Shown here piece by piece: positions 1-22,755 of a stretch of DNA of 32,000 nucleotides. The stretch comes from Erysipelothrix larvae (GTDB lineage: Bacteria; Bacillota_I; Bacilli_A; Erysipelotrichales; Erysipelotrichaceae). The stretch lies in NCBI RefSeq assembly GCF_001545095.1, contig NZ_CP013213.1, forward strand, positions 1,620,001 through 1,652,000, written 5' to 3'. Position numbers and translations under genes: made by a program. The notes beneath the pieces were generated by a model. The model saw only the letters and a program-made list of their open reading frames with translations. It made no database searches and was not told the origin of the DNA. How positions within the stretch are numbered: the first letter of the stretch is position 1; each line of letters opens with the position of its first letter.

Positions 1-1098
1 AACCTCCTTGATTCGTTTAATGATAATATCTAAGTCATTTTTATGCTGAAGGGGTCTTGGATCAAAACTGATCATCCCCTGATTTGCATCATAATTACGT
101 GTGAAGATTTGTGGTGTTCCTTTTTCGAGACGATGGATTATTTCGTGTGCACTTATTCCTAAGATTTGTGCATCAAAGTGAACTTTAGCCCGATATATGT
201 CCCGTCCTGATTCGTCTTTGATTTTTTGCGCATAAACACCGTTGATGGTATTCAGTGTCTCAATGAATGGATCCAAATCATCATAAGATACCTCAAAGTT
301 TTGTGATGAAGTGGTATATTCATAGGCTGCTTGAATCAATCCAAAGATGTTTTCTTTACCAATCTTCATCCCACGTCCAACACCATAGATGTGTTTTCTT
401 AGGTTGATTGCATCATCCTGTGATTGAACCAACACAAAACCTGAAGTGGGTCCCATCAATGCCTTTGAGCCACTATAGATGACATAGTCAATCCCCATTT
501 TCGTAAATGATGTGAAGTCAATTTCCGCTGCACAATCTAGAATTAATGGTTTTTTAAACTGTCGTGCGATGTCAAGCATTTCCTCAAGAGATAGCATATC
601 TTTTTGGACACAGTGTGAGCTTTTTACATACATCAGTGCCGCTGTTTTTTTATTGATACACAGCTCAACATCGCGTTGTGTACACTTATTTGCATAACCT
701 GCTTCAATAACACAACCCCCGCCTGTTTCTATCATGGTTTGTATTGGCGCGCCAAAGTCAACGTTGTGTCCTTTTGGAAGCACGATTTCATGTGGATAAT
801 CCTGCATGCTGGAATCGTGAATCTTTTGAATTTGTGCGTCATGATCTTTACATAAAACCGCCGCTACACTTAAACTGATCCCTGCGGATGCACTTGAGGT
901 AATAACTGCATCGGGTGCATCAAAGAGTGATGCCAAGGTTTCGCCGGAAATTTTGTATAGATCATCCATTAAAAAGTAGTTTGAAGCGCCATAGTTCATG
1001 GCGTCTTTCACACCGTGTGATTGTGTTGAGACTCCTAATTTTGTCATCCGTCCGGATGCATTAATGCACCCATTTATCTTGTCCATTAGATAGACCAT
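1..1098 (-). CDS. SelA-like PLP-dependent enzyme, DgaE-type (putative amino-sugar-acid-phosphate ammonia-lyase); the 3' end runs off the window
   Basis: My own minus-strand translation is open from the ATG at 1098-1096 to the window edge. It is absent from the ORF track because it is truncated. GGAGGT (1105-1110) lies 6 nt upstream, and the ATG overlaps the upstream stop as TAATG. The N-terminus MVYLMDKINGCINASGRMTKLGVS and the motif YSGSKALMGPTSG (PLP-lysine type) resemble the SelA/DgaE family. Confidence 0.75.
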   Translation of the reverse strand, partial: MVYLMDKINGCINASGRMTKLGVSTQSHGVKDAMNYGASNYFLMDDLYKISGETLASLFDAPDAVITSSASAGISLSVAAVLCKDHDAQIQKIHDSSMQDYPHEIVLPKGHNVDFGAPIQTMIETGGGCVIEAGYANKCTQRDVELCINKKTAALMYVKSSHCVQKDMLSLEEMLDIARQFKKPLILDCAAEIDFTSFTKMGIDYVIYSGSKALMGPTSGFVLVQSQDDAINLRKHIYGVGRGMKIGKENIFGLIQAAYEYTTSSQNFEVSYDDLDPFIETLNTINGVYAQKIKDESGRDIYRAKVHFDAQILGISAHEIIHRLEKGTPQIFTRNYDANQGMISFDPRPLQHKNDLDIIIKRIKEV

Positions 1099-2207
1099 TA
1101 GTGTACCTCCGTATATACTCCTGAAATCATACAACCTTTTGGTGTAATTTGTTTGTGGATTTGGATGGATTCATTGTTGGAATCGACTGCAGTTGTATCT
1201 ACAGTTTCCACTTCAAAGAATGTTAGGTGTGCTTTCACACCGTCTTTTAGCATTCCAAACCCTTTAAGTTTCGCATTATTTGCAGCACCCAATGTCACAA
1301 GATGAACCACATTCTCAAGACTATAGCCCATATTTAGAAACTTCGTCATAACACCTGCTAAAGAACCGACCGGTGTTTCAACATTGTACTTATGAATGTC
1401 TGTGCTAATGCTATCGGGTTCAAAATTATTGGACATGGCTTGTTTCGCAATCGTGAAACTAAAGCTATCTTGACCGTGTCCAACATCGTATAGAACCCCT
1501 TCTTTGCGTTTATCAAGCACAAGGTCCTTGATATGCAAACCATCCAAGATATTGTTTGGTTTGCCATGGAAGCAATGGGTTAACACATCGTCTTCACGCA
1601 TTTGTTTGAGCACCTCATGAATGGTAGGTGGGTTGTTTCCAAAGTGAACCATAATGGGACGATTGGTTGTGTTTGACACTGTGTGCGCCTTAAGAAATGG
1701 TGTCACAGTATCTTCGCCCATTACACTACCGGATGCTCGTACTTTGATGCCCACTACAAAATCATCATAGGCTTGAATCTTCGCAATTGTCGCATCAATA
1801 TCTACATTGTCAGGATCCTTCAGTTCAAAACGATCAATGAGTCCTGATTTCGCAATGTTGATCCATGCTTTCACAATTGTTTGTTTGTCTTTTACTTGAT
1901 TGTAGAATGTATCAATTGTATCCGATCCACTGGATCCTGCATCAATGACACAAACGACACCTGTTTTTACTCCGATACGGTCTGCTTCCACTCCTAAGTC
2001 TGTCGTATCTTGGAAACAATGCACATGGATATCAATCCAACCAGGGCTGACATAGCCCCCTTTTGCATCGATCACTGTGTCGAAATCTGTACATGGTTCT
2101 TGTGTGATGGATTCAATGACATCATCCTTCACAAGTATGTTTACTTGACACTTATGAAGTGGATGTGTTTGATCCACAAGAACACAGTTTGTGATGAGTG
2201 TGCGCAT
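1098..2207 (-). CDS. Amidohydrolase/deacetylase-family metallohydrolase (EF_0837/AHA_3915-like)
   Basis: 369-aa ORF with the HxH metal motif (WIDIHVHCF) near the N-terminus and a dihydroorotase/NagA-like length and layout. The start ATG overlaps the upstream stop (TAATG, 2205-2209). Confidence 0.8.
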   Translation of the reverse strand: MRTLITNCVLVDQTHPLHKCQVNILVKDDVIESITQEPCTDFDTVIDAKGGYVSPGWIDIHVHCFQDTTDLGVEADRIGVKTGVVCVIDAGSSGSDTIDTFYNQVKDKQTIVKAWINIAKSGLIDRFELKDPDNVDIDATIAKIQAYDDFVVGIKVRASGSVMGEDTVTPFLKAHTVSNTTNRPIMVHFGNNPPTIHEVLKQMREDDVLTHCFHGKPNNILDGLHIKDLVLDKRKEGVLYDVGHGQDSFSFTIAKQAMSNNFEPDSISTDIHKYNVETPVGSLAGVMTKFLNMGYSLENVVHLVTLGAANNAKLKGFGMLKDGVKAHLTFFEVETVDTTAVDSNNESIQIHKQITPKGCMISGVYTEVH

Positions 2208-2869
2208 TAGCTTACAACAGGGAGTGGAATACCAACGAGTACATTGAATGCAGCCATAATAATCGCACCTAAGATTGCACCCCCAACAATTGGTTTGTGA
2301 ATCTTATAGAAGACCAGTGAACCAATGACAGAGCCAATCCCAATAAATGGTCCATAGGCAACTGCACTCAGGATTACAAGAGGCCCTAATGCGTCTCCGG
2401 TTTTATTTCCAGCACCGATCATGATTGAAGTTGCTGTTCCTAAGGAGTTTGTGGGTGTAAACTTACGAATCAAAATAATGAGTGCACCAATACTCCCGCC
2501 AATCACAAACCCAGATAAGATTGCGAGGATAAAACTATCAATTAAAAATCCCATATTAGAAGTCAGTAAGATTGCTGGAATCCCAACACCAATACCGGTC
2601 ATTAAGGATCCCCCAATATCTAAAATTCCGACAAGTGGCCCTTCAAGAATGCGGGCAATCAGAAATGCAGAAGAGAATGCGAGTGCAGCATCATAGGCAC
2701 CTGTACTCTTTCCTTGATCTAAAAACTCCGCAATATAGATCTCGTTTGTGAGTCCTACGCCATGTGTTAAATACATACTTGTAGCCCCAACAACACCAGC
2801 TGATGCCAGTGCGAGCAGTAAAATAAAGGCGATATCTTTTTCTAAGAATGCTTCAAATTTTTCTTTCAT
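2207..2869 (-). CDS. Polytopic membrane protein, DUF4310-like (EF_0833-type)
   Basis: 220-aa ORF, extremely Gly/Ile/Ala/Leu-rich, with about 6 hydrophobic spans. SD AAAGGAGA lies about 9 nt upstream. The family name is assigned from memory of gene order and composition, not by search. Confidence 0.65.
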   Translation of the reverse strand: MKEKFEAFLEKDIAFILLLALASAGVVGATSMYLTHGVGLTNEIYIAEFLDQGKSTGAYDAALAFSSAFLIARILEGPLVGILDIGGSLMTGIGVGIPAILLTSNMGFLIDSFILAILSGFVIGGSIGALIILIRKFTPTNSLGTATSIMIGAGNKTGDALGPLVILSAVAYGPFIGIGSVIGSLVFYKIHKPIVGGAILGAIIMAAFNVLVGIPLPVVS

Positions 2870-2886
2870 ACAGTGGGTCTCCTTTC

Positions 2887-3609
2887 TTAAAATAGACCAA
2901 GAATTGTCTTATGGAAGCCACGGAAGTACGCAATCATACAAATCATAATCACGATAACTGCAAGCATGAGTCTGAATGATTTGTCTTTCGTTCCTTTTTC
3001 TTGCGCTAAGGTTCCTGCAAGAATTCCAAAGATTATACCCGGTAGAGAGTTTCCAGATATCATCTGCATAACACCTGCAAGGACAAGTGCATAAGCACCA
3101 ACAGTTTGTCCAGCATCAAGTGCTGCCCATAGAAAGATCAGTGGCATCACGATGTTAATCATGTTGGTGGATGCAGGGGCCAAAATATTCCCCGCTACTT
3201 CCGCAATATTCTTGGGTACAAGACCTGATGCAGTTGTTAAGAAAACAAAGACACTGGCACCAATTATTGCACCAACAATAAGATTTGAACTGATGGTTTT
3301 CGTGTAGTCCTTTTTCTTATTTAAGTTGATAACAGCTGCAGTCCAGTTTGGAATCACACGGTGTAAGATATCTTGTGTTAATGCCCCTGTTCCGATTGCT
3401 GAAGCAGCAGAAGTAATAAAGAATCCAAGACCAAAGGAGAAGTGTGAAACAGAGTCTCCATTACATGCATTCATTTCTCCTAATGTTCTAAATGCTCCCA
3501 TCCCTTGTATTTCAGGGGCTCTAAACATACGTGCAGCACCCGCAGCGATTGCGCCACCTGATAGTGCACCGACGATAATTGCTTTTATAATAATTTCAAA
3601 CTCTATCAT
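2887..3609 (-). CDS. Polytopic membrane protein, DUF4311-like (EF_0832-type)
   Basis: 240-aa Gly/Ala/Ile-rich ORF with multiple hydrophobic spans. Its ATG directly abuts the TAA of the upstream gene, and its SD (AGGAGG) is embedded in the last codons (I-G-G-E) of that gene. Confidence 0.65.
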   Translation of the reverse strand: MIEFEIIIKAIIVGALSGGAIAAGAARMFRAPEIQGMGAFRTLGEMNACNGDSVSHFSFGLGFFITSAASAIGTGALTQDILHRVIPNWTAAVINLNKKKDYTKTISSNLIVGAIIGASVFVFLTTASGLVPKNIAEVAGNILAPASTNMINIVMPLIFLWAALDAGQTVGAYALVLAGVMQMISGNSLPGIIFGILAGTLAQEKGTKDKSFRLMLAVIVIMICMIAYFRGFHKTILGLF

Positions 3610-3903
3610 TTACTCGCCTCCTATATTTAAGTATTTGACTGTTAAGTGAATGTTCAATTCAAGTGCGTATGAATCCACAATCCGTTTAAAAAAGAAATAT
3701 AAGAACGCTTCCTTCGCTTGCGTTTTTTGAATGTTCTTAACTTCAATTGCATCAGCACTCACACTGATAATTGGATCTTTAATCAGCGTTTGCAGTTCAA
3801 GGCGCATTGACTTAAACGCATCTTCAACAGCACTGTGTTGGGATGCTCCATGTCCTTTGACATGCATCACTAAGTGATCTTCAACAAGATGATTATGAGT
3901 CAT
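3610..3903 (-). CDS. Small soluble protein, DUF4312-like (EF_0831-type)
   Basis: 97-aa ORF with no hydrophobic span. It overlaps the upstream SFCGS gene by 11 nt and has no strong SD, so translational coupling is likely. The family call rests on position in the conserved cluster. Confidence 0.55.
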   Translation of the reverse strand: MTHNHLVEDHLVMHVKGHGASQHSAVEDAFKSMRLELQTLIKDPIISVSADAIEVKNIQKTQAKEAFLYFFFKRIVDSYALELNIHLTVKYLNIGGE

Positions 3904-4255
3904 TTCGTTTGATCCAAGCTTTCGCTAAATCACTTCCTAAAGATTCAGTATCCATAAATCCAAAGCCCAATACTTCGACGCCTTCATTGATTGCGGTAAC
4001 GCCTGCTTCATTGGTTCTTAAGTGATGTTTTGCTTTGTAACCATATTTGTTACTTGCAGTAATTGCTCCAGCTCCCCCTGACCCACAAAATGAGATACCA
4101 AAGTCAGCGTTGTGTTCCTTCATTGCATCGCCAAGCTTCATGTCTGCTGCCATTCCTTCAACTACAATAGCAGTTCCCCCAGCATCTTCAATGCCTTTGG
4201 CAGTATTTTGACCTTTTCCCATACGGTGTCCAATAACTACGATTGGTCGTTTCAT
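3893..4255 (-). CDS. SFCGS-family glycine-rich protein (EF_0830-type)
   Basis: 120-aa ORF containing the literal motif G-I-S-F-C-G-S-G-G-A-G. The SFCGS codons sit at 4079-4093, with Cys TGT at 4085-4087. An ATGA overlaps the upstream PRD gene. Confidence 0.8.
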   Translation of the reverse strand: MKRPIVVIGHRMGKGQNTAKGIEDAGGTAIVVEGMAADMKLGDAMKEHNADFGISFCGSGGAGAITASNKYGYKAKHHLRTNEAGVTAINEGVEVLGFGFMDTESLGSDLAKAWIKRNDS

Positions 4256-4602
4256 TTGTCCACCTCCTTTCTATTTTTCGCAAAGTAAATCGCAAATAAA
4301 TACGTTTCAAAATCTGTAATATCATAGTCCTTAAGCAGTTTGTGTGTCTTAAATAATTCTTTTGACACATCAATACACTCCTGAGGAATTTCTCCTGTAT
4401 CTTCAAACTCAAGATCATTTTGTGCGTGATTGTATACACGCTCTACAAGTGATAAATAATGATTCCAAAACAAGATATCATCGAGGATTTCTTGATTGAA
4501 GTTCAAGGTTTCAATTGCATCTTCCATCGTTTTGATTTCTTGATGCAAGGTGTCAATATTCGCGAAATATTGTCTTAACTCTTCGTGTAAGGTCTGTTTC
4601 AT
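4252..4602 (-). CDS. Stand-alone PRD-domain protein (EF_0829-type), no DNA-binding domain
   Basis: 116-aa acidic ORF that looks helical, with ATGA overlaps on both sides (4599-4602 and 4252-4255). Its position and size match the small PRD protein of this conserved cluster. Confidence 0.6.
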   Translation of the reverse strand: MKQTLHEELRQYFANIDTLHQEIKTMEDAIETLNFNQEILDDILFWNHYLSLVERVYNHAQNDLEFEDTGEIPQECIDVSKELFKTHKLLKDYDITDFETYLFAIYFAKNRKEVDK

Positions 4603-6485
4603 TGTCCGTCTTTCCTTTCAATAATATAATCAAAAAAACTCATTCGTTCTTGGATATTTAAAAGCACGCCCAGTTCTTGTTCAATCAAATCAAAGACTTG
4701 TTCAAATTGAATATAGACAACGTTGTGATTGGTTTCAATGTCATCCAGTGCTTTCATAACAAACGCGTCATGGACTTCTTTTGATTCGATCCAACGGGGT
4801 ATAGCGAGGATACAGTGAATTAAGATGCCCAGTATTTTTTGATCGTTGACTCCATATTTTTCATCCAATGACATTAATACATCCAAAATATTCAAGATTA
4901 CCGATGAGAGTTTTTCAACGCTGATATAGGTATTTGCATTGGAAGCTTGAAATTGCTTCTCAAGAAATTCGCCCAAGCTTTGTTTGGATGTATTTGGCAT
5001 CACACGCGATACAATGCCATAATTCAATAGGCGTTGAATTTGCTCGATATCTTTAATATTTAAGAGCTGGGTTACATGAATCACCGGAATCGAAATGTCT
5101 TTGACAGGAATGGTAGAGATGATAAAGTCAGCATCTTGATACCGTTTCTTATTCAACATTTGATTGATGGTTAAGGTTCCCAAAACTTCAATTTGGGGAA
5201 ATACATGCTTAATCCGTGTTTCAAGAAGTTTGGATACCCCTCGACTTGAAGCACAGGCAACATACACCTTTGGATGGTTTAATTCCGGTTTTTTCAACCA
5301 GTTCTTGTAAAGATAAATTGCGATAAAACTGAGTTCATCTTCACTGACTGCATACGCATAGGGTGATTTTTGAATCACGTTTTCATTAATCCGTTTTGCC
5401 AGTTCAAATTGTTCTGCATGCTGTTGTTTAACTTGGTTAAGCAGTGGATTAAAGTCTTTGGCTAATACGACGCGCTGTCTTTTGATTGAACCGTTGATAT
5501 GCTTGCGCAAGTCATCAGCAAGCGGTAGTGGGTCAATTGGATAATTATGGTGGATCAGATACTCAATAATCTCATCCACTAAGATATGACTCACATGCGA
5601 CGTATTCCCTTCTTCACTAATTACCACAATCCCCTCATCAACAAGAAACGAAATAAACCCCCATACTTCTGATTCCTCATGACATGTCGTAAATAAGTGT
5701 TCAAAAAGAAACTCACAATAGTGACGTTCTGATTTAAATGCAACGTGATCGAATGTTTGTGAACCGTTATCTCTAAATCCTAAATTGATCCGAATCTCAA
5801 GTGTTATAATTGCTGAGATTAGTTTCATAAATGAGTGTTGGCTTAGCCACACATGAAATTGATGATTCACACGGTCTAGGATTAAAATAATCACTTTGAA
5901 TCGCTCTGGGCTGACTTGTTGTTTAATCTGCTTTGGCAACACATCATAATAGTCCAAAAGATTGTAGTGCGTGCTGATGGTTTCCATGATCTTCTCAGTC
6001 ATCAAGATGCGCAGTTGATGTTCCAATCCCACAATCATATATCCCATATTACTGGCCTCAATCACACACCCTGATGCCTTAATGTCTTCATTAATCTCAT
6101 GGACACATTTTGAGGTTGATGATTCACTGATGTATACACTGTGAGCAAGTTGGGTTAAACTTAGGGGTCTTCGCTGAACAAGTAAGGTTAATATAATCGT
6201 ATTTTTACGAAAGGTTCGCTCATCAATTTCTTCTTCGGATAGGTCAAAAGCGAAGATTGAAGAGAGTTTTGACTTGTCACGGTTTAACACCGTATACCCA
6301 ACCCCACTTTTCACAATCAGTTCAACATCAATTTCAGCCAAGATCTCTTTAACTTGTGCCATATCATATCGAATCGTACGAAGGCTCACATTCAATGACG
6401 AACACAACATTTCAGTACTGATCGGTGTGACTGAATAGTAGAGCTTCTTAATAATGTTCATATGTCTTTTCTTGATGGTGCGCAT
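4599..6485 (-). CDS. BglG/MtlR-class PRD-containing transcriptional regulator with an EIIB(type 2)-like domain
   Basis: 628-aa ORF. It has an N-terminal wHTH-like segment (LCSSLNVSLRTIRYDMAQVKEIL) and PRD-like segments. An EIIB-2-like segment reads HPKVYVACASSRGVSKLLETRIKHVFPQIEV...DADFIISTIPV. A C-terminal PRD-like stretch reads ILGILIHCILAIPRW. SD GAGG lies about 9 nt upstream of the ATG at 6485. Confidence 0.8.
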   Translation of the reverse strand: MRTIKKRHMNIIKKLYYSVTPISTEMLCSSLNVSLRTIRYDMAQVKEILAEIDVELIVKSGVGYTVLNRDKSKLSSIFAFDLSEEEIDERTFRKNTIILTLLVQRRPLSLTQLAHSVYISESSTSKCVHEINEDIKASGCVIEASNMGYMIVGLEHQLRILMTEKIMETISTHYNLLDYYDVLPKQIKQQVSPERFKVIILILDRVNHQFHVWLSQHSFMKLISAIITLEIRINLGFRDNGSQTFDHVAFKSERHYCEFLFEHLFTTCHEESEVWGFISFLVDEGIVVISEEGNTSHVSHILVDEIIEYLIHHNYPIDPLPLADDLRKHINGSIKRQRVVLAKDFNPLLNQVKQQHAEQFELAKRINENVIQKSPYAYAVSEDELSFIAIYLYKNWLKKPELNHPKVYVACASSRGVSKLLETRIKHVFPQIEVLGTLTINQMLNKKRYQDADFIISTIPVKDISIPVIHVTQLLNIKDIEQIQRLLNYGIVSRVMPNTSKQSLGEFLEKQFQASNANTYISVEKLSSVILNILDVLMSLDEKYGVNDQKILGILIHCILAIPRWIESKEVHDAFVMKALDDIETNHNVVYIQFEQVFDLIEQELGVLLNIQERMSFFDYIIERKDGQ

Positions 6486-6957: not shown

Positions 6958-7752
6958 TTAAACTAATTCAATGATATCCATAAACGGTGAGTCATCAAAG
7001 GATACTTGAGCCTGTTTTTGAACAAGGCGAAACGTATGGGTTTCAAGATGATGTTGAATCCGATGAAAGAGCCAAACATCACGAATTCCTGGCATTTCAT
7101 TTCCAATTATGCGACCTATCAATTCTGCAATCGCAAACGGTCCTTCTGGTGTCCATTTATCAATTAAAAAATCATAGAAATCATCCCTTACAGACATCAA
7201 CATCCCATTGATAATCACTCTGAGGTTCGCATTTTCAGCTGCGAGTGTTTCCCACTGTTGCGCCATGACTTCTTTTGTCGATTCATTCAGTATTTCAGTG
7301 TGTCCGATCATATCATCAATTGATTCAACATTCACTTCGCGCCATGAACCATACGTAACATTATATTTTACATTGGTTTCAAGTCGATTAACTCTGAGTG
7401 TGTAGGATTGGTTTTGTAATACATAACAAAGATGATACAGACCACACCAAGTTTCTGGCGTATTATCCACCCATACTTGTAAGAGATCGTGCTGTCGGAT
7501 GTGTTTGAAGAGTTTTTCTCGCCCCTTAATGCGATCTGAAAACATTGCCTCTACATCTTCATCAGTGAATGAATAAATTGAAAAGAGTTCTTTGAGGCTA
7601 TTGAGTCGTTGGTTTGAATCAAATGTTTCGCTAATATCGCCTAAGTCTAAGAAATGTCCCAGTCCAATAATGTTCTCTGGATCTTTATTTGCATTTCGTG
7701 TTTTTATGGCAAGCGAAGCATGAAAACTATCATTAAATACAATATCTAACAT
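6958..7752 (-). CDS. DUF1835-like protein (uncharacterized)
   Basis: The ORF-track frame is 6958..7758 and starts at a GTG. The SD GGAGG (plus 7760-7764) is only 1 nt from that GTG but 7 nt from the in-frame ATG at 7752. That ATG gives MLDIVFNDSFHASL, which resembles the N-termini of DUF1835 proteins as I recall them. Confidence 0.5.
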   Translation of the reverse strand: MLDIVFNDSFHASLAIKTRNANKDPENIIGLGHFLDLGDISETFDSNQRLNSLKELFSIYSFTDEDVEAMFSDRIKGREKLFKHIRQHDLLQVWVDNTPETWCGLYHLCYVLQNQSYTLRVNRLETNVKYNVTYGSWREVNVESIDDMIGHTEILNESTKEVMAQQWETLAAENANLRVIINGMLMSVRDDFYDFLIDKWTPEGPFAIAELIGRIIGNEMPGIRDVWLFHRIQHHLETHTFRLVQKQAQVSFDDSPFMDIIELV

Positions 7753-7856
7753 GTCCACCCCTCCTTTGTCTCATTATATCATATGAGCACACGCAATATA
7801 ATAGGAGCTTAACAATCCGTTAAGCCCTTACAGGTTATGAGCACAAGTGATCCAAC

Positions 7857-9757: not shown

Positions 9758-10612
9758 TCATTGTTGCATGCAATATTTTTTAATCGCTTCAACTTGGTCC
9801 ATTGTTTCAGTGTAACCAACGTCATAGAGTGCTTTAAGTTTTTGATTGTTGGTTTCAAACCGAGATACTTCAACGGGTTTTGAAGGTGCAATGATATACA
9901 CATCATCATGAGCTTGATCATTTTTGAGTTTATCACGAACCGTATTATATGCTTGATAGCGTGAGTTTATGGTATCCATCAGGTGTGGGTATCCATGATA
10001 AAAAAGTTTCGTGATGGCTTTCTCTGCGTGTGATGGTGCTTTCTTATGATAGGTTTCATCTTGTGTAAGCACCACAACAATGCGATCATACCCCAGTTCG
10101 CGCGCTCTGATGTAAGGAATTGGATCACCAATTCCGCCGTCTAAATAAAGATGATTTCCAATTGGAACCATCTTAGATAGATAAGGGACACTTGCAGTTG
10201 CGACAATACGATCAAATGCTTCGCGTGTTGGCTTCGCATGATATTCTGGCTTGCCTGTGTGTGTATTTGTAATGACACAATCAAACTGTGCATCACTGGT
10301 AATATATGCATCATAATCGAGTGGATATTTTGCTTCAACTGCTTGACTCATGAGAAATCCAATATTGAAGTATGACTTGTTTTTTAATAGACTTGAAAAG
10401 CCTCGGTATCGTTTATCATGGAGAAATTCTTGATTTAAACGTACCGTTCGACCGTGTTGTTTTGAAAGATAACTGATGGCACATAATGCACCACCTGATA
10501 CACCACATACATAATCAAACTCAATATTTGCTTCAAGGAGCGCATCTAAAACGCCCATTGTATAAAAGGTTCTCAGTGCACCACCTTCAAGCACTAATGC
10601 TGTTTTACTCAT
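9758..10612 (-). CDS. Patatin-like phospholipase family protein
   Basis: 284-aa ORF with an oxyanion-hole motif LEGGALRT, a nucleophile-elbow motif G-V-S-G-G and the catalytic Asp motif LDGGIGD. SD GGAG lies 5 nt upstream. Confidence 0.85.
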   Translation of the reverse strand: MSKTALVLEGGALRTFYTMGVLDALLEANIEFDYVCGVSGGALCAISYLSKQHGRTVRLNQEFLHDKRYRGFSSLLKNKSYFNIGFLMSQAVEAKYPLDYDAYITSDAQFDCVITNTHTGKPEYHAKPTREAFDRIVATASVPYLSKMVPIGNHLYLDGGIGDPIPYIRARELGYDRIVVVLTQDETYHKKAPSHAEKAITKLFYHGYPHLMDTINSRYQAYNTVRDKLKNDQAHDDVYIIAPSKPVEVSRFETNNQKLKALYDVGYTETMDQVEAIKKYCMQQ

Positions 10613-10672: not shown

Positions 10673-11872
10673 TTATGCGTTATTGTTTAGCCAATTGAGT
10701 GCTGTTTGAGTATAGGTGAGAATTCCATACGCAATGGCATCTTCATCAAGGGTTACGGATGGATGGTGTAATGGATAATCGTTTTCAGTGCGGGCATCAC
10801 TTGCGACAATCATGACACTTGTTACTGGGATTTCATGACTGATATAAGCGAAATCTTCAGATCCCATCACGGGGATTTCTGGACGCTGTGGTGCGATGAC
10901 CCCTGTATCACCTACGATGGGTTTTAGGGCTTGATACGCACAATCACTGACAACCTTGGATGATTTGAGATAAGGTGCTCCGACTGGGAATGTAATTTCT
11001 GCTGTGCATCGGTATGCTTTCGCAATATGGTCTGCAATTTCAACGATCCGTTCTTTGATAAAGGATCTATGTTTTTCATTATAGGTTCGAATGGTTCCTC
11101 CCAAGGTTACATCATCATTGATGACATTGGATGTTTGAGGGCCATTTAGTGCACCGACAGTAAGTGAGACCAGTGCATTGGGTGGAAGTTCACGTGATTG
11201 GATGGTTTGAAGTGTTTGCAGGATTGCGGTTGCGGGAAGGAGTGGGTCCATCCCTAAATAAGGAGATGATCCATGGCCACCTTTGCCTTGAATTTTTATA
11301 TCAAACCAATCCACCGATGCCATACAAGGACCATGTGGCATGAACACAAGGGTTCCAATATCTAGTGGAACACCCGTCATTACATGAACCATCATGCCTG
11401 CATCCGGTGTTGGATTTTGAAGCACGCCATGTTCAATCATATCTTTTGCGCCTTGCATTGTTTCTTCACCAGGTTGGAACATGAGTTTAATGGTTCCATT
11501 GATTTCATCCTCATGATTTTTAAAGTATTGTGCTGCACCTAAAAGCATGGTTGTATGCATATCATGACCACATGCATGCATGCGTCCGTCAATCTTCGAC
11601 TTAAATTCCAAGTTTGTATTTTCTATAATCGGTAAAGCATCCATATCTGCACGCAGTAAAAATACGGGAGTTTTTTTATTTCCAATGGTTGTACAGAGTC
11701 CCGCATGTCCAATGTGTGTGACATCATAACCCATTTCAGTGAGTTTTTGTGCGACATAATCACGTGTGTTTAAACACTCAAGACCTAATTCAGGGTTTTC
11801 GTGAAGATGTCTTCGACATGGTATTAACGTTTTCGCAATTTCCTTTACTTCATTCATTATGATTGTATTCAT
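10673..11872 (-). CDS. M20D-family amidohydrolase (N-acyl-amino-acid / hippurate hydrolase-like)
   Basis: 399-aa ORF with the motifs LRADMDALP, HACGHD and FQPGEE, typical of M20 aminoacylases. No clear SD precedes either candidate ATG. Confidence 0.85.
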   Translation of the reverse strand: MNTIIMNEVKEIAKTLIPCRRHLHENPELGLECLNTRDYVAQKLTEMGYDVTHIGHAGLCTTIGNKKTPVFLLRADMDALPIIENTNLEFKSKIDGRMHACGHDMHTTMLLGAAQYFKNHEDEINGTIKLMFQPGEETMQGAKDMIEHGVLQNPTPDAGMMVHVMTGVPLDIGTLVFMPHGPCMASVDWFDIKIQGKGGHGSSPYLGMDPLLPATAILQTLQTIQSRELPPNALVSLTVGALNGPQTSNVINDDVTLGGTIRTYNEKHRSFIKERIVEIADHIAKAYRCTAEITFPVGAPYLKSSKVVSDCAYQALKPIVGDTGVIAPQRPEIPVMGSEDFAYISHEIPVTSVMIVASDARTENDYPLHHPSVTLDEDAIAYGILTYTQTALNWLNNNA

Positions 11873-12279
11873 ATGTTTTGTGTATATAAATGTGGTTTAT
11901 TGCTTTTATATACATCCCCTTTCTATGGTATTATTTTATCATTTATTGGTCGTTAGGATTTTGTATTTTTTTTATTGATTGTTGCATAAATAATATATGA
12001 ACGTGCTATTTTGGCCGTTTTTATTGATGGAAATCTTTTCTGAAATGTTGCCATTTATTATTTCCATTGAACATAAGAACAAATATATGCTACTATTTAT
12101 TTAAAGGTGAACACGTTAATCTATTTAAAACGTGCATATATCACCACTATTATAGGATAGCATTTAAAAATAACTGATATTTCAATGATTCATATTGTTC
12201 TCATACCACAGTTTAAACACATGAAATATTCAGTGTTTAAGCGTGATGATTTATTTAATATTTTTTAAGGGGGGACGCT

Positions 12280-13080
12280 ATGCCTGGTTTCATTTATAAG
12301 CTTCAAAATGTTTTACTTACGTCTGCGAATATCAGCAATTCTGATTCGCAAATTGCTCGTCTGATTCTACAAAATCCACAGCTTGCGCATAAAAATGTAA
12401 CACTAAATGAACTTGCGAAAGCGTGTTATACATCAGTATCCAGTATCAGTCGTTTTGCGACCAATCTTGGTTATGATAGTTTCAATGATATGAAAGCAGA
12501 TTTTACCGGTATTGAATCGGAGTATTATGAACTTCAAATCGATAATTCATTCTTACAAAATCATTCCGTAAAGGAGTATAAAGCACGGATTATTCATTCT
12601 TTTGATTCAATGAACGAGATTGATTTAAAAAAACATGCGACATGGCTTGCGGAATTCATTTACGAATATGACACAATCTTTTTGTTTGCGACACATATTA
12701 CCAGTAATCTCGTAACGATTCTTCACCGGGCTGTTTTGGCTACGGGTAAGTATATTGAATTTGTGCAAGATAAACACAGCCAAATGCTTTTGGCTGAAAA
12801 AGCGTCACCATCCGATGCGTTTATCATTGTTTCTCTTGACGGTACTTTAGCAATGGCACAGGAAATCATCATCCCAATTATCATTTCTAAAGCGAAACGC
12901 ATTCTTATAACACAAAACATTAATTTAAAGTTCTCGGATAATTTCGACTTTATTATTCCACTTGGGACGAAGTCGGATAACTTTACTGCAAAGTATAAGT
13001 TAATGTTATTTATTGATTATTTTATATCTGTGTATTTTGAATATGCGAATGCTCAAAAAAATATCAGTGAGCATAAATAA
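12280..13080 (+). CDS. MurR/RpiR-family transcriptional regulator (HTH_6 + SIS domain)
   Basis: 266-aa ORF with an N-terminal HTH (LNELAKACYTSVSSISRFATNLGYDSFNDMK) and a C-terminal half of SIS-like length. SD AAGGGGGG lies 5 nt upstream. Confidence 0.85.
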   Translation: MPGFIYKLQNVLLTSANISNSDSQIARLILQNPQLAHKNVTLNELAKACYTSVSSISRFATNLGYDSFNDMKADFTGIESEYYELQIDNSFLQNHSVKEYKARIIHSFDSMNEIDLKKHATWLAEFIYEYDTIFLFATHITSNLVTILHRAVLATGKYIEFVQDKHSQMLLAEKASPSDAFIIVSLDGTLAMAQEIIIPIIISKAKRILITQNINLKFSDNFDFIIPLGTKSDNFTAKYKLMLFIDYFISVYFEYANAQKNISEHK

Positions 13081-13130
13081 AAACGCGTCATGATGCTTAC
13101 GTTTTGGATCATGACGCTTCTTATTATTTT
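13076..13130. terminator. Bidirectional terminator between convergent rpiR-like and GH1 genes
   Basis: A perfect 10-bp stem, GCGTCATGAT (13085-13094) with ATCATGACGC (13108-13117), has an A-rich 5' flank and a T-rich 3' flank. Confidence 0.6.
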
Positions 13131-14515
13131 GATTGATTTTCAATGAATGATTTAAACCAAACACTGCTTTTTTTGGGTGTTCTTTTTTGAGTATCGAGAT
13201 CAAGACTGATAAATCCATACCGATTTGTATAGCCATTAAGCCATGACCAACAATCCACAAAGGTCCATAAATGATATCCAAAGCAGTTGGATCCTTCTTG
13301 GATTCCACGATGAAGGACTTCAAGATGTTCTTGAATAAACTCAATGCGGTAATCATCTTGGATCATCCCAGCATCATCTTTAAATCGCGCTTCGTCTGCG
13401 ACCCCCATGCCATTTTCAGATACATACCAAGGAATGTTTTGATAGTCATGTTTTAACATCATTGCGATATCGTATAAAGCTTCTGGGAAGATTTCCCAGC
13501 CACGATAAGGATTCATACGACGGTTTTCCCAAACAAATGGTACAAACAAATCATCCAGTGTTTGCATTGGAACGCGGGCTGTTTTTTGCGGTGCTTGAAC
13601 ACGCATTGGTTGGTAATAATTCACACCCAGAAATTCTGCTGTATTGGTTTTAATGATGTCCAAATCAGCCACATCTGTCTCAATGAGTAGTTCATGTGTC
13701 TTAAGCAGGTCAATGAGCTCTTGGGGAAAGATTCCTTTGACCATTGGGTCTAAGAATGAACGAACAATCAACAAGTGTGCTTTTTGACTTGCGATGACAT
13801 CTTTTTCTTGGTTTGAACCACTGTATACAGGGGTTAAATTGAGCACGGTTCCTACTTTAATATCATTACGTACACCTTTCATTGCTCGAATTGCTTTTGC
13901 ATGGGCTAAAATTGTATGATAGCCTGAAACAACCGCTTTACGAAGATCGTGAATTGCTGGATAGTGGTGTCCAGAAATATAACTGCACTCAACATGTACA
14001 AGTGGTTCATTAAAGGTTACCCAATGTTTTACCAGATCCCCAAAATGAAGGATGCATTGTCTTGCATATTCTTCAAAGTAAGTGGTAATTTGTGGATTGG
14101 TCCAGCCCCCTTTTTCCATCATCCACCATGGCATATCAAAGTGAAAAAGGTTGATGGTCGGTTCTATCCCATGTTCAATCAAAGTTTTAAAGTAATCACG
14201 ATAAAATTGAACGGCTTCTTCGTTCACTGTTATACCATCGGGCATGAGTCTTGTCCAAGATATGGACGTGCGATATGAATTCAGATGCATGTCCTTCATT
14301 AATTGAATGTCTTCTTTATAACAGTTATATACATTTGATGTAGTTTCTGGCCCTACACCTGAGAATTTCTCAGGTTCAAGCTCAAACCATCGATCCCATG
14401 TGCTTTGTGATTTACCATGCGATGAGCTTTCGCCTTCTGTTTGAGGGGCTGATGCAGCTGTGCCCCACCAAAAGTTTTCAGGAAAGCGCAGTGTTTCAAA
14501 GGGTTTATGTGTCAT
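13124..14515 (-). CDS. GH1-family (6-phospho-)beta-glycosidase
   Basis: 463-aa ORF with FPENFWWGTAASAPQTEG, the acid/base motif TFNEP and the nucleophile motif VSENGMG. The C-terminal motif is SWLNGYTNRYG. SD GGAG lies 7 nt upstream. Confidence 0.9.
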   Translation of the reverse strand: MTHKPFETLRFPENFWWGTAASAPQTEGESSSHGKSQSTWDRWFELEPEKFSGVGPETTSNVYNCYKEDIQLMKDMHLNSYRTSISWTRLMPDGITVNEEAVQFYRDYFKTLIEHGIEPTINLFHFDMPWWMMEKGGWTNPQITTYFEEYARQCILHFGDLVKHWVTFNEPLVHVECSYISGHHYPAIHDLRKAVVSGYHTILAHAKAIRAMKGVRNDIKVGTVLNLTPVYSGSNQEKDVIASQKAHLLIVRSFLDPMVKGIFPQELIDLLKTHELLIETDVADLDIIKTNTAEFLGVNYYQPMRVQAPQKTARVPMQTLDDLFVPFVWENRRMNPYRGWEIFPEALYDIAMMLKHDYQNIPWYVSENGMGVADEARFKDDAGMIQDDYRIEFIQEHLEVLHRGIQEGSNCFGYHLWTFVDCWSWLNGYTNRYGFISLDLDTQKRTPKKSSVWFKSFIENQSK

Positions 14516-14580
14516 TGATATACTCCAATCTTTTGGTTGTCACATTCATTATATTTGATTTGAATCAATCTTAAAAGGCT

Positions 14581-14619
14581 AAAAAGTAAAAGGGGCACAT
14601 TCACACGTGAACACACCCC
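14581..14619 (-). terminator. Intercistronic hairpin + U-tract (possible attenuator between the EIIC and GH1 genes)
   Basis: The minus-strand RNA reads GGGG-UGUG-UUCAC-GU-GUGAA-UGUG-CCCC followed by UUUUACUUUUU. It starts 17 nt after the EIIC stop. The middle of the stem depends on G.U pairs. Confidence 0.4.
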
Positions 14620-14635
14620 AATTGATAAGACAGGT

Positions 14636-15916
14636 TTAATTGTTTGAAGCTTCTTGTTCGATTTCCAACATATCTTGTTTATTTGCAACATATACAAATG
14701 GAAGATAGATACAAATCATCACAACTAAGTTAAATGCAGCGAGTAATCCGCCTCTCCAACTTGCAGTAGCAAGTAGCCCACCGATAACTGGCGGTGTTAC
14801 CCAAGCAGTTACAACGGTACATACAGGTACAAGTCCTGAAGATGTTGCGAAGTATGCAATTGCAGCAAGAACAACTGGTCCAAATACATAAGGAATAAAG
14901 TAAATTGGATTTAAGACAATTGGAAGTCCAAATGTAAGGGGTTCGTTGATATTAAAGATACCAGGACCAATACTTAAACTTGCCATCGTCATCATCTTCT
15001 TATTCTTACGTCCAATGATAAACATTGCGATGAGTAAGGCGATTGTTGCGCCTGTACCACCCATATTTACAAATGAATCAAAGAATGGTTTATTTACAAT
15101 ATTTTCTGCTGCTTTTCCAGCTGCGATTGCGGCGTTATTTGCTTCAATTGCTGGAGCATTAATCAATTGCATCACTGGGTCGATCATATTCGCACCGTGA
15201 ATACCAAAGAACCAAAGGAATGTTGGTACAACTGCTAGAATCAATGCAGCAGGTAGTGTTGAAGATAATCCCATGAATGGTTTTTGGAAGTTTTCATAGA
15301 ATACTTCGACTACATTTGGAATTCCAACTCTTACAAGAATTGTTGTGATAAGACCAACTGCAACGATAACAAGCATCATTGGTATCATACTGTTAAATGA
15401 AGAAGCAACGCCTGCTGGAACACCCTCTGGCATAGTAATCTTCAACTTATCAATACTGCTGAGTACTTTGAGTAATTCAACAGAAAGTAATGCAACAATA
15501 ATTGCGATAAATAGACCACTTGAACTTACACCAGCCATACCACCAATTGTTGCGAATGAAGCAAGTGAGGTAGCACCCGCTGTTTTCCCATTCATTCCAT
15601 ATGAAGTGCCTAGGTTATCACCAATTAGATATGCCATAAAGAGTGACATAATTCCAAAGGTTCCGTTCCAAACATTTCCGCCAAGATTTTTCCAAATATG
15701 AGACCCATCTTCGAGTGTATATGCGAAGATGCTATTCATAAGGTTTTGGAATGCTTCAATTGGTAAATTATTAATTGCTACAACGAGCGCTCCGATAATC
15801 ATCAGTGGCATTATGGTCGTGAAGGCATCTCTTATGGCAAGCAAATGTCTTTGATTTCCTACCTTGTTCGCGATTGGAAGTAATGCATCTCCCATTTTAT
15901 CCATAAAACTATTCAT
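14636..15916 (-). CDS. PTS EIIC component, lactose/cellobiose (Lac) family
   Basis: 426-aa polytopic ORF. The N-terminus MDKMGDALLPIANKVGNQRHLLAIRDAF is typical of CelB/LicC-type EIIC. SD AAGGAGAAAAAGGAG lies upstream. Confidence 0.9.
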   Translation of the reverse strand: MNSFMDKMGDALLPIANKVGNQRHLLAIRDAFTTIMPLMIIGALVVAINNLPIEAFQNLMNSIFAYTLEDGSHIWKNLGGNVWNGTFGIMSLFMAYLIGDNLGTSYGMNGKTAGATSLASFATIGGMAGVSSSGLFIAIIVALLSVELLKVLSSIDKLKITMPEGVPAGVASSFNSMIPMMLVIVAVGLITTILVRVGIPNVVEVFYENFQKPFMGLSSTLPAALILAVVPTFLWFFGIHGANMIDPVMQLINAPAIEANNAAIAAGKAAENIVNKPFFDSFVNMGGTGATIALLIAMFIIGRKNKKMMTMASLSIGPGIFNINEPLTFGLPIVLNPIYFIPYVFGPVVLAAIAYFATSSGLVPVCTVVTAWVTPPVIGGLLATASWRGGLLAAFNLVVMICIYLPFVYVANKQDMLEIEQEASNN

Positions 15917-16048
15917 ATTCTTTCTCCTTTTTCTCCTTAATAAGACTTCTCAATTCTTATTTTTGATTTCAATATATGCACATTTACCTACCCCCTTTTG
16001 TGTGCACTATATCGCTTACATACATATGGTATCTTTTTTATCCAATTG

Positions 16049-16063
16049 ATGGCAACGTTTACA
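16049..16063. promoter_or_regulatory. Candidate cre (CcpA) site upstream of the EIIC-GH1 operon
   Basis: ATGGCAACGTTTACA has one mismatch (position 5) to the cre consensus WTGNAANCGNWNNCW. It lies about 135 nt upstream of the EIIC ATG. A second, weaker half-overlapping copy (ACAAGCGTTTAAA) follows. Confidence 0.3.
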
Positions 16064-16377
16064 AGCGTTTAAACTCGAAACATATTCCGCATTATGATAA
16101 ATTTTCCAAATTTTGAAATATAGGTAATTTTTTTACATATCAACATATATTAAACCTGCGCATTCTACCCAAGCAATCCTATAACCTAAAAGAATAATCC
16201 AAATAGACGCTTGCACGGACATAGGTCTATTAAGATCACTATGGATATCCCGCATTGGGTATGATGGTTTATCCAGTAATTTAATGACCATCTTTAATTT
16301 CATAAATCTTTCGATTATAATATTATCAAGGACACATTGCATGGTGTGATTTTTGTGGGGAATATAAGGAGAGATTG

Positions 16378-16872
16378 ATGAAGCTATATATAAAGCAAAA
16401 GGTGTTTACAATTGCGGAAAAATTTGAAGTGAAAAACGAGTTTGGAGAAACTGTTTTTTACTGTGAGGGAAGTTTCTTTAGAATTCCAAAAAAATTTACA
16501 ATCTATGATAAGAACCATGAGATTGTTGGGGAAGTTGAAAAGGTTATGTTAACCTTGATGCCACGGTATGTGATTAGAGATAGTCGTCGTGAAGTAACCC
16601 TTAGAAAGCAATTTACGTTTTTGTTTAGCGCGTACATTCTTGACAATATTGACTGGAAACTTGAAGGAAACTTCACTGCACATAAGTATCGGCTTTTGTA
16701 TGGGAATACCATCATCATGTCGATTGATAAACATTGGTTCACTTGGGGTGATAGTTATGAGCTGGATATTCGAGATGAAGACGATGCAATCTTAGCGTTA
16801 GGGATTGTTTTGGCGATTGACCGGATTCTATCCGATGATCATAACACAGCAAATTCTAATGTAAGTAATTAA
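16378..16872 (+). CDS. YxjI / LURP-one-related (tubby C-terminal-like) family protein
   Basis: MKLYIKQKVFTIAEKFEVKNEFGETVFYCEGSFF...KKFTIYDKNHEIVGEV matches the YxjI-type pattern as I recall it. I prefer ATG 16378 (6 nt after GGAG) over the track's TTG at 16375. Confidence 0.7.
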   Translation: MKLYIKQKVFTIAEKFEVKNEFGETVFYCEGSFFRIPKKFTIYDKNHEIVGEVEKVMLTLMPRYVIRDSRREVTLRKQFTFLFSAYILDNIDWKLEGNFTAHKYRLLYGNTIIMSIDKHWFTWGDSYELDIRDEDDAILALGIVLAIDRILSDDHNTANSNVSN

Positions 16873-16940
16873 TCCATTGATTTTATGAGTCGTTCAATCC
16901 ATCCTGTGATATTATTTCTTCACTTGGGAACATCAAAAAT

Positions 16941-17012
16941 TTAAAAATAAAAGGCACCACCTTTGTGAACAGTTTGATAATGCTGTCCATTCAAAGTGGT
17001 GCCACTTTTTAT
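16941..17012. terminator. Bidirectional terminator between the convergent yxjI-like and GH1 genes
   Basis: GGCACCACCTTTG (16953-16965) pairs with CAAAGTGGTGCC (16992-17003) with one bulge. AAAAATAAAA lies 5' of the stem and CTTTTT lies 3' of it. Confidence 0.55.
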
Positions 17013-17035
17013 AAATTCATTTATTTTTAATTCGG

Positions 17036-18532
<1,497 letters not shown>

Positions 18533-22400: not shown

Positions 22401-22755
22401 GGATTTGTGATAAATTTTTAAACCCTGCATTTTCAACTCCCTTGACCGTTAAAATATCAAACTCGATATAATCACCTGATAAATAATTGTCGTAATTTGA
22501 ATCAATTGCAGACCATCGTAAATCAAAGTATAGATTATGCGTTCCAGAATTATAACTGAAATCATCAACGCTGATTACTCCGTTATCATTATGAACTTTT
22601 TTCCCTGCAACACTAATATTAATAGAATCAATTTTAAAATCATTTGTTACATTATTTCCTGTAATTGGTGTTTCCTCATTTTCAGCAAACACATAATTAT
22701 TACCCACGATTATCATCAACAAACATAAGAATGCAACAAGCATCTTTTTAATCAT
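19489..22755 (-). CDS. LPXTG-anchored surface adhesin (collagen-adhesin-like N-terminal region, 2 SpaA/prealbumin-like domains, 3 CnaB-type repeats)
   Basis: 1088-aa ORF with a signal peptide (MIKKMLVAFLCLLMIIVGNNYVFA/ENE). GNYYLVEEASPDGF and GAYQVVEEKAPIGY are SpaA-type motifs. Three VSGTKTWVDDNN-type repeats are present. The C-terminus is LPSTG + hydrophobic span + KKKEKADKS. SD GGGAGG lies 8 nt upstream. Confidence 0.9.
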   Translation of the reverse strand: MIKKMLVAFLCLLMIIVGNNYVFAENEETPITGNNVTNDFKIDSINISVAGKKVHNDNGVISVDDFSYNSGTHNLYFDLRWSAIDSNYDNYLSGDYIEFDILTVKGVENAGFKNLSQIRQLTDGNVVFAIGQLKVVKIDDTTSKLVYVITFNENIEGKDNISGGLDGGASYSGIANGETVEYSYGDETLVNVTVDLKPSSETIKGVIKPTDEPKNNKAVSSISTIDYTITWNVDVNNHLGNQFKDYESKYADAKYEDLIIEEVLDSNLSFTSESGSKKIFIDIPFYLYSDKHDENGKIIQYKSWFQYNMFDYFTEITSEGKSVSDVELAVRSQPLSFALITEQDPDNQGKTRERVIMNFGAPGSTGLRYTDLRYDGYVQFVNSLIKSQEYVNGIVEYGTAMGRNDSDVVSGDYEESHTFLEWKEMASIYNQSVDYYTEKNDSNRYIGPYVYNFSLKVVTAVKYKDIDTLNAVKVKNTVIIKGTDKDGDYSAEKDNFWKAYIVAKPTIGDAVIYKANKLYESGTNQEIASHYIKDVHFRVYKASDNTPILFNYSGGKYVYSPQGQLALVKTGMDGSLILNGLATGNYYLVEEASPDGFYQTKSGNEKISFTTSKYDISYITVTNVPRTVVWRKTDADNTQLTLQDAQFALYKCSDNLCQGNMEKVEGFTKTIVNGIEYYAYDGKGTDALISSSDGMVRVTYLDAGAYQVVEEKAPIGYQLSDHKITFILEEDYNNTDVINLGDFLNEKQLVTVSGTKTWVDDNNQEGFRPDAIELILKGNDEVVEGVTPTWTKVSDNVWSYTYENLLKYQNGAEIKYTVEEVPVAGYVMTQKGYDITNTRITSYTEVSGTKTWVDDNNREGFRPNTIELILKANNEVVQGVTPTWTKVSDNLWSYTYENLPQYQNGAEIKYTVEEVPVAGYVMTQKGYDITNTRITSYTEVSGTKTWVDNDNKEGYRPDSIQLILFANNQVVTNIEPTWVKDKNVWTYTFSNLPKYINGEEVIYTVKEVLVDNYQGSQDGFDLVNTLDVRRKTETITPNLPNTGDRPHKDVLPSTGVENDRFGFYILSFGMILLSFSHLSKKKEKADKS
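19681..20505 (-). repeat. Tandem coding repeat, 282-bp period: 2 near-identical copies plus 1 diverged 261-bp copy (CnaB-type domains)
   Basis: The string CCACCCATGTTTTCGTTCCACT recurs at 19914, 20196 and 20478, exactly 282 bp apart. The encoded 94-aa units (aa 751-844 and 845-938) differ at 9 positions. The third unit (aa 939-1025) is diverged. Confidence 0.9.

Follow-up and report, generated by a model that had tools for sequence, protein, structure and literature searches.

The stretch of DNA considered here (the window) comprises 32,000 nucleotides of Erysipelothrix larvae (assembly GCF_001545095.1, contig NZ_CP013213.1, positions 1,620,001 to 1,652,000 of the forward strand). At one end it carries a catabolic gene cassette, in which the genes for a small glycine-rich protein (SFCGS), a soluble protein (DUF4312; DUF, domain of unknown function) and two membrane proteins (DUF4311 and DUF4310) lie between regulatory genes and genes for two enzymes. 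For these four genes, a role as a non-canonical transporter, possibly related to the phosphoenolpyruvate (PEP)-dependent phosphotransferase system (PTS), had been suggested on the basis of the sequence; this suggestion is referred to below as the original prediction. In the direction of transcription, the cassette consists of the following genes:

4599..6485, minus strand: cassette regulator of 628 aa with an HTH_11 domain, an Mga helix-turn-helix domain, a PRD and a weak EIIB (Lac/Gat)-like domain (Pfam and NCBIfam)
4252..4602, minus strand: stand-alone PRD-domain protein of 116 aa, EF_0829-like (family profile)
3893..4255, minus strand: SFCGS glycine-rich protein of 120 aa (PF14272, Gly_rich_SFCGS, 6.7e-53, 178 bits)
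3610..3903, minus strand: DUF4312 protein of 97 aa, soluble (PF14189, 2.8e-11, 43.7 bits)
2887..3609, minus strand: DUF4311 polytopic membrane protein of 240 aa (PF14188, 4.5e-73, 246 bits)
2207..2869, minus strand: DUF4310 polytopic membrane protein of 220 aa (PF14187, 2.5e-67, 227 bits)
1098..2207, minus strand: metallohydrolase of the amidohydrolase/deacetylase family (EF_0837 family), 369 aa (NCBIfam NF006689, 378.7 bits, cut-off 371)
1..1098, minus strand: DgaE-family ammonia-lyase dependent on pyridoxal phosphate, 366 codons read (TIGR01437, 437 bits, cut-off 385)

The DgaE-like gene reaches the window edge and has no stop codon within the window. Pfam gathering cut-offs for the four module families lie at about 27 bits and were exceeded by all four proteins, so that the four-gene module proposed at 2207-4255 was recovered with its open reading frames of 120, 97, 240 and 220 aa and with family support for each. 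From the regulator gene to the DgaE-like gene, the junctions consist of ATGA and TAATG sequences, an 11-nt overlap and gaps of 0 and 17 nt, the TAATG being the overlap of the DUF4310 stop codon with the start codon of the amidohydrolase gene. Due to these near-touching or overlapping starts and stops, the genes can be regarded as one operon, in which the SFCGS, DUF4312, DUF4311 and DUF4310 genes are translationally coupled. Searches of the operon proteins against Pfam and NCBIfam did not detect any ATP-binding cassette (ABC), major facilitator superfamily (MFS) or known PTS enzyme II (EII) family, which agrees with the original prediction that the operon lacks a recognizable transporter gene of these kinds. 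It was also correctly described as being headed by PRD/EIIB-like regulators, namely the 628-aa HTH_11-Mga-PRD protein with its weak EIIB-like domain, followed by the 116-aa PRD-family protein. The gene for the latter belongs to the module throughout and had been left out of the four-gene set.

The families and their neighbourhood are already catalogued in TIGRFAM and Pfam, without functional assignment there. The genes of the window belong to the same families, and have the same order and the same enzyme partners, as the EF_0829-EF_0839 / AHA_3910-AHA_3917 neighbourhood (TIGR03577-03583), but represent a divergent Bacillota version, as three of the four proteins remain under the 'hypothetical equivalog' cut-offs of the TIGRFAM 'EF_0830-EF_0833' models. 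A scan of a collection with one genome per species revealed a relative of SFCGS in at least 547 stretches, and 80 loci (numbered with the prefix L below) were kept for neighbourhood analysis. The order SFCGS-DUF4312-DUF4311-DUF4310 is kept in all 80 loci, which belong to Bacillota, Fusobacteriota and Enterobacterales. Carriers include Salmonella, Klebsiella, Enterobacter, Enterococcus faecalis, Erwinia/Pantoea, Fusobacterium and Mollicutes; at the level of megablast, no copy of the Salmonella cassette was found in E. coli genomes. The amidohydrolase/deacetylase was present in 80/80 loci, as was the PRD-only family, whose gene is always situated directly upstream of the SFCGS gene. Homologues of the DgaE-like lyase were found in 79/80 loci (the exception, L026, ends at a contig end) and homologues of the large regulator in 77/80, the remaining three loci also stopping at contig ends. 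In 74/80 loci, the cassette enzymes are followed by a KDGP aldolase (PF07071), the position of which would fall just beyond the edge of the window. On the other hand, the cassettes of the 80 loci contain no conserved ABC, MFS or known EII gene, and within 10 kb neither a Lac/Glc-type EIIC nor another recurrent transporter was detected; a PfkB-type kinase was found within this distance in 0/80 loci.

Some accessory genes are confined to parts of this collection. In 19 enterobacterial loci, a seven-bladed beta-propeller lactonase (PF10282) with an apparent signal peptide is encoded between the aldolase and the regulator (e.g. L047, 15216-16364), which is consistent with a lactone or an aldonate as substrate. 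Cof-type HAD phosphatases (PF08282) recur in cassettes of Firmicutes; in L001 and L050, they come directly after the KDGP aldolase, and a scan of the genes around 14 non-enterobacterial loci gave six hits to this family. These neighbours hint at phosphorylated intermediates. Two Cof-type HAD phosphatase genes (PF08282; 7887-8771 and 8929-9705, minus strand) also lie upstream of the cassette in the window, on the same strand. The enterococcal cassettes contain additional genes. The E. faecium copy is located on a composite transposon, and a Fru-type EIIC is listed within the cassette (PMC11934601). In E. faecalis L082 (NZ_CP143580), a canonical PTS EIIC, a 99-aa protein without family and a MupG-like 6-phospho-glycosidase are inserted between DUF4310 and the amidohydrolase (11376-14111), and a PfkB kinase is encoded downstream (17081-18091).

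The SFCGS protein is extremely conserved. Its identity between Bacillota and Proteobacteria amounts to 64-82 %, and a profile search among 1.84 billion representatives yielded essentially one 50 %-identity cluster, with neither fusion proteins nor sister families and with only fragments and one divergent relative beside it. Such conservation would agree with a protein that interacts with more than one partner. The single cysteine pointed out by the original prediction in the sequence GISFCGSGGAG is Cys57 (codon 4087-4085), and its conservation, which had been suggested for examination, proved to be complete: it is invariant in 120/120 homologues and is retained in the divergent relative (P0254) within the motif SQCGSGGAGA. 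Arg11, Gly13, Gly15, Ala37-Asp38-Met39 and Asp102 are invariant as well, Lys40 and Arg80 nearly so. The loop from Ser55 to Ala64 is conserved along its whole length, and Gly97 and Phe100 of a GFGF motif do not vary. In the AlphaFold2 (AF2) model (pLDDT 95.5), the protein is built of five beta-alpha units. Cys57 sits where strand 3 (residues 52-56) ends, and all invariant residues are in loops that follow beta-strands.

A Foldseek search of the PDB with this model returned chains of RpiB/LacAB isomerases as the top 45 matches (E 2.7e-6 to 1e-3, TM-score 0.56-0.72), and no PTS EIIB was among the 50 hits listed. In Pfam, only PF14272 and, weakly, LacAB_rpiB (PF02502) were matched at E<=0.01, and no EIIB family model. 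The LacAB_rpiB score of 21.1 bits is under the gathering threshold of 24.7, and the NCBIfam RpiB subfamily scored 22 against a cut-off of 135. In E. coli RpiB, Cys66 and Thr68 are catalytic, His99 and Asn100 participate in ring opening, and Arg133 and Arg137 bind phosphate in the C-terminal helix. An hhalign alignment with this protein (E 4.4e-5) placed Cys57 on Cys66 and Ser59 on Thr68; at the position of His99, SFCGS has Asn or Lys, at that of Asn100 it has Glu, and it ends at about RpiB residue 128, without the helix bearing Arg133 and Arg137. A canonical RpiB/LacAB isomerase could therefore be ruled out, as key residues and the C-terminal helix are absent. What the proteins share is the fold and a C-G-[ST]-G-x-G loop. 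What separates them is the length (120 aa versus about 150 aa), the invariant residues Arg11, Asp38, Lys40, Arg80 and Asp102, which are not found in RpiB, and the fact that SFCGS constitutes a separate and very tight family without a HMMER link to RpiB. Judging from the model, the SFCGS fold is of the RpiB/LacAB isomerase type, with the nucleophile loop retained and a residue set of its own.

With the Cys-type EIIB proteins of the PTS (Lac/Chb, Gat, Asc, Mtl/Fru; PF02302 and related families), SFCGS has in common that it is a small cytoplasmic alpha/beta protein in which an invariant cysteine starts a glycine-rich loop leading into a helix, and that it is encoded beside membrane subunits and PRD proteins. 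However, there is no match in sequence or fold. In Cys-type EIIB proteins, the sheet has four strands and the phosphorylated cysteine lies in the loop behind strand 1, whereas in SFCGS the sheet has five strands and the cysteine follows strand 3. Fold and topology hence rule out a canonical EIIB, and the EIIB-like nature ascribed to SFCGS by the original prediction was not borne out. The protein is a candidate phosphoryl carrier or, alternatively, an enzyme.

In the DUF4312 family, Ala25 and Phe67 are the sole invariant residues. His, Cys and Asp are not conserved at any position, and enterobacterial members such as that of L017 are devoid of histidine altogether. Without a conserved His or Cys, DUF4312 cannot be a phosphocarrier of the EIIA type, and the idea of an EIIA-like 97-aa protein has to be abandoned. 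A comparison with the PDB did not yield any significant relative, the best match being Alba (E 0.017). Neither SFCGS nor DUF4312 contains a hydrophobic segment; from their sequences, both appear to be cytoplasmic, as partners in EII systems typically are.

DUF4311 and DUF4310 possess approximately six hydrophobic segments each, and the richness in Gly, Ala and Ile for which they had been singled out is evident from their composition (in the two proteins, 10.8 and 14.1 % Gly, 13.8 and 11.4 % Ala, 12.9 and 14.1 % Ile). DUF4311 has a conserved polar motif, QGMGAFRTLGEMNAxxGD..SHFSFGLGF, between the first two transmembrane helices; the conserved motifs of DUF4310 are GAFNE, ARxxEGxLVGxxDxGG, RK and MMGAGN. 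The AF2 model of DUF4311 is all-helical (pLDDT 84, pTM 0.63). Compared with the PDB by Foldseek, it gave no hit below E 1.8, and profile searches of the PDB were empty for DUF4311 and DUF4310 alike, so that homology of the two proteins to solved transporters is unsupported; the comparison with EIIC folds covers DUF4311 only, and the Gut and Gat types of EIIC may have no solved structure. In Pfam, no PTS EIIC or EIID family was matched by either protein at E<=10. The two proteins are weakly similar to each other, in register (hhalign, E 0.0044), and a DUF4310 hidden Markov model matches the DUF4311 protein of Spiroplasma at 2.5e-4, a hint from sequence comparison that they may be distantly paralogous. 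The split permease of the original prediction thus remains plausible with regard to the constant adjacency of the two genes and this possible paralogy, but DUF4311 does not resemble any solved EIIC or other transporter. In Spiroplasma sp. SV19 (L171, 10549-12231), the DUF4310 protein is called with 560 aa, about 350 of which form an N-terminal extension rich in Lys, Gln and Asn; possibly, the start was called wrongly, or a genuine coiled-coil part has been added.

Connections of the module to the PTS are provided by its regulatory proteins and by some of its neighbours. The EIIB-like domain of the window regulator holds a cysteine (VYVACASSRG), and the protein is homologous to the regulator of a Bartonella cassette, which has an EIIA_2 domain in addition. 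The 116-aa protein of the window does not match the Pfam PRD model by itself; within its family, 8/13 members match PF00874, and the family profile matched 3NUF ('PRD-containing transcription regulator') in the PDB at 5e-23 and the LicT PRD at 3.5e-7. By these profile comparisons, the family is assigned to the PRD domains. His48, Arg55 and Glu99 are invariant in 79/79 sequences, while the second, usually conserved (91 %) His is replaced by Tyr in the window copy. In one genome each of Spiroplasma and Mycoplasmatales, the PRD-only gene is retained upstream of the SFCGS gene, even though the large regulator there is of the RpiR/SIS or GntR/UTRA type; the Spiroplasma cassette is flanked by genes of RpiR/SIS-type regulators, which are neighbours of a phosphosugar type. 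As the gene persists where the large regulator is not of the PRD type, the module is treated here as one of five genes. In three Clostridia, namely Wukongibacter (L006), Vallitalea (L032) and a metagenome-assembled genome of Firmicutes (L050), the cassette has genes for HPr and/or EI as immediate neighbours. On a plasmid of Bartonella sp. HY406 (NZ_CP104895, L083, 272-10062), a complete nine-gene cassette is followed by a gene for a fused HPr-EI protein of 671 aa. Apart from these, the plasmid, with a size of 55 kb, contains genes for type VI secretion and for replication; the cassette copy looks like a portable cassette equipped with its own general PTS proteins.

In Salmonella, the DgaABCD PTS makes D-glucosaminate 6-phosphate, which DgaE converts to KDG-6-P (the 6-phosphate of 2-keto-3-deoxygluconate), and KDG-6-P is then cleaved by DgaF (PMC9529869). 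Like this system, the cassette of the window combines a lyase of the DgaE family and a KDGP aldolase with an adjoining permease block and has no kinase. It differs in that the Salmonella permease is a Man-family EIIABCD, in whose stead there are five unrelated proteins, and in having an extra deacetylase, a PRD/Mga-type regulator and a lyase that is not a DgaE equivalog: with 339 bits, the window enzyme did not reach the cut-off of 600 for the D-glucosaminate-6-phosphate lyase equivalog. By analogy, the module would occupy the place of DgaABCD, and the simplest reading is a non-orthologous permease replacement. The substrate is likely to be an N-acylated 2-amino aldonic acid; as a guess, N-acetyl-D-glucosaminate (GlcNAc1A), a product of lytic polysaccharide monooxygenases, can be named. 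Since the cassette lacks a conserved kinase and the characterised relatives of its enzymes act on 6-phosphates made by the PTS, a link to the PTS is favoured.

It is probable that the module is the uptake system of the cassette. That it is a PTS-dependent permease of a new family, encoded by five genes and both importing and phosphorylating its substrate, is proposed tentatively, with confidence that falls a little short of even, and this proposal rests on gene context. What we infer from the sequences, the structural models and this context are transport and phosphotransfer, the function of Cys57, the kind of substrate and the stoichiometry. Of the PTS-like transporter originally predicted, the general idea was strengthened, as the module is the sole candidate uptake system within a cassette that is conserved in 80/80 loci and has ties to PRD proteins and to HPr/EI, while the EIIB, EIIA and EIIC details were not supported. 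In the proposed permease, DUF4311 and DUF4310 would form a heteromeric membrane permease with DUF4312 as an accessory subunit. SFCGS would dock on its cytoplasmic face and present Cys57 in a glycine-rich, anion-cradling loop. The phosphoryl group would pass from PEP via EI and HPr to Cys57 of SFCGS, possibly with the stand-alone PRD protein or the EIIA/EIIB-like domains of the regulator as a relay between HPr and Cys57, and from there to the incoming substrate. The resulting 6-phosphate may then be deacetylated by the amidohydrolase, deaminated to KDG-6-P by the DgaE-like lyase and cleaved by the KDGP aldolase, and the phosphorylation state of the module would feed back on the PRD regulator.

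Several points weigh against such a permease. The searches did not find an EIIB, EIIA or EIIC family or fold for any of the module proteins, and as DUF4312 lacks a conserved phosphorylatable residue, the module contains no obvious counterpart of EIIA. Given the RpiB/LacAB fold and the alignment of the Cys/Ser pair with the catalytic residues Cys66 and Thr68, SFCGS could act enzymatically instead of carrying a phosphoryl group. The HPr/EI genes linked to some cassettes might serve the PRD regulators only. HPr-like genes past the cassette regulator in L016, L027, L034 and L075 (Sodalis, Rouxiella, Acerihabitans) are ptsO (NPr) of the rpoN-hpf-ptsN-rapZ-ptsO operon, which is a chance neighbour, and do not count as evidence. 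The extra canonical EIIC in enterococcal cassettes raises the possibility that the DUF proteins are not the permease; instead, the enterococcal permeases may serve related disaccharides. The phosphate could also originate from a kinase outside the cassette, by analogy with a non-phosphorylating deacetylase/deaminase route for GlcNAc1A that proceeds via KdgK and is described for other systems in PMC9537276. Moreover, a literature search with the DUF names, EF083x, STM444x and YhfT/U found no functional study; the only traces are annotations and a passage that names STM4441-2 and STM4446 among genes induced in a caecal community of chickens.

On this basis, it is conceivable, though rather unlikely, that DUF4311 and DUF4310, perhaps together with DUF4312, constitute an ion-coupled secondary permease, with SFCGS as an RpiB-derived isomerase or epimerase in which Cys57 is the catalytic base, a kinase encoded elsewhere and PRD proteins that couple expression to the status of the PTS. 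Fold and Cys/Ser dyad of SFCGS agree with RpiB/LacAB, isomerases of the LacAB type are generally known from PTS sugar operons, and both the KdgK route and the PfkB kinase downstream of the E. faecalis cassette provide examples of a separate kinase. The EIIC genes inserted in enterococci leave room for this reading, as they also do for a module that merely senses. By contrast, SFCGS lacks the equivalents of His99/Asn100 and the helix with Arg133/Arg137 and stays below the LacAB_rpiB threshold (21.1 versus 24.7 bits), an isomerase would be superfluous in a DgaE-type pathway, and in the order of the operon SFCGS is always next to the membrane genes and never next to the enzymes. In addition, all 80 loci are free of a PfkB-type kinase within 10 kb, and the Bartonella plasmid supplies its own HPr-EI.

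A module that is EII-like but does not transport, acting as a membrane-bound sensor of the substrate that governs both PRD-only protein and PRD regulator while the substrate enters through transporters encoded elsewhere, would account for the invariable adjacency of the PRD-only gene and for the dissimilarity of DUF4311 to known transporter folds. It is nevertheless very unlikely, as most cassettes, including the plasmid-borne and Mollicutes copies, have no other transporter, a sensor would hardly need as much machinery as a pair of conserved polytopic proteins with polar motifs inside the membrane, and Mollicutes keep the module where the transcription factor is not of the PRD type (RpiR or GntR type). 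The least likely of the explanations considered is that the four proteins make up a catabolic enzyme associated with the membrane, e.g. an oxidoreductase or a dehydratase, with SFCGS as the catalytic subunit. The conserved polar and charged residues in the membrane subunits and the enzyme-type fold of SFCGS would be in line with it. However, none of the four proteins shows a cofactor-binding, redox or known enzyme family, the three soluble enzymes already suffice to convert a 2-acetamido aldonate 6-phosphate to pyruvate and glyceraldehyde 3-phosphate, and the cassette would be left without an uptake step.

A comparison with the yhf cluster of E. coli K-12 (yhfZ-yhfY-yhfX-yhfW-php-yhfU-yhfT-yhfS; L081, 4936-12345) suggests itself. 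This cluster has a parallel architecture, with YhfY as a PRD-only protein of about 120 aa. YhfU (DUF2620) resembles SFCGS in its size of approximately 118 aa, in an invariant cysteine within a C-N-T-G-A-G loop and in a weak similarity to LacAB_rpiB, and it adjoins the polytopic membrane protein YhfT in a cluster that likewise contains neither a kinase nor a known transporter. On the other hand, there is one membrane protein of 433 aa instead of two, and the partner enzymes are different. The architecture was seen in E. coli, Aeromonas, Vibrio and Yersinia (L081, L166-L169), and a metagenome scan for further YhfU/YhfT diversity revealed E. coli copies only. Homology of the SFCGS module to YhfU/YhfT could not be established with the methods applied, since the hhalign comparisons were not significant (SFCGS and DUF2620, E 0.06; DUF4311 and YhfT, E 0.007 with a probability of 5 %); the resemblance is suggestive without reaching significance. 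Extending the proposal, one may speculate that the module represents an eighth and structurally unrelated PTS permease family with a cysteine phosphocarrier of RpiB fold, two novel, distantly paralogous translocator proteins and the stand-alone PRD as HPr-to-carrier relay in the role of EIIA, and that YhfY/YhfU/YhfT of E. coli are a second branch; in this detail, the scheme is improbable. To our knowledge, PRD domains have hitherto been described as regulatory switches of transcription factors and in no other role.

The remainder of the window contains genes of other functions. Between the cassette regulator and position 11872, genes for a DUF1835/DUF3658 protein (6958-7758), a patatin-like phospholipase (9758-10612) and an M20-family peptidase/amidohydrolase (10673-11872) were found on the minus strand. 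A cluster of the beta-glucoside/cellobiose type at 12280-18505 comprises an RpiR regulator gene on the plus strand, two genes resembling phospho-beta-glucosidases of glycoside hydrolase family 1 (GH1) and a canonical Lac/Chb-type PTS EIIC (14636-15916). This EIIC belongs to the GH1 cluster, which is separate from the SFCGS cassette, and no EIIB or EIIA was noticed beside it. At 19489-22755 on the minus strand, a surface protein of 1088 aa with Cna_B repeats and an SpaA prealbumin-like domain is encoded, which is of the adhesin or pilin type.

If the interpretation as a PTS-dependent permease is right, the module is a known kind of system that has been assembled from unrelated parts. The PTS, for a long time presented as a closed set of permease families, would then gain a family of unrelated folds, and the prediction of PTS substrates and of PRD regulation from genomes would change. 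For its carriers, the cassette probably opens a defined nutrient niche, perhaps that of oxidised amino sugars of chitin or host glycans. In any case, the module is a clear target for assigning a function to four families of 'domain of unknown function' proteins at once.

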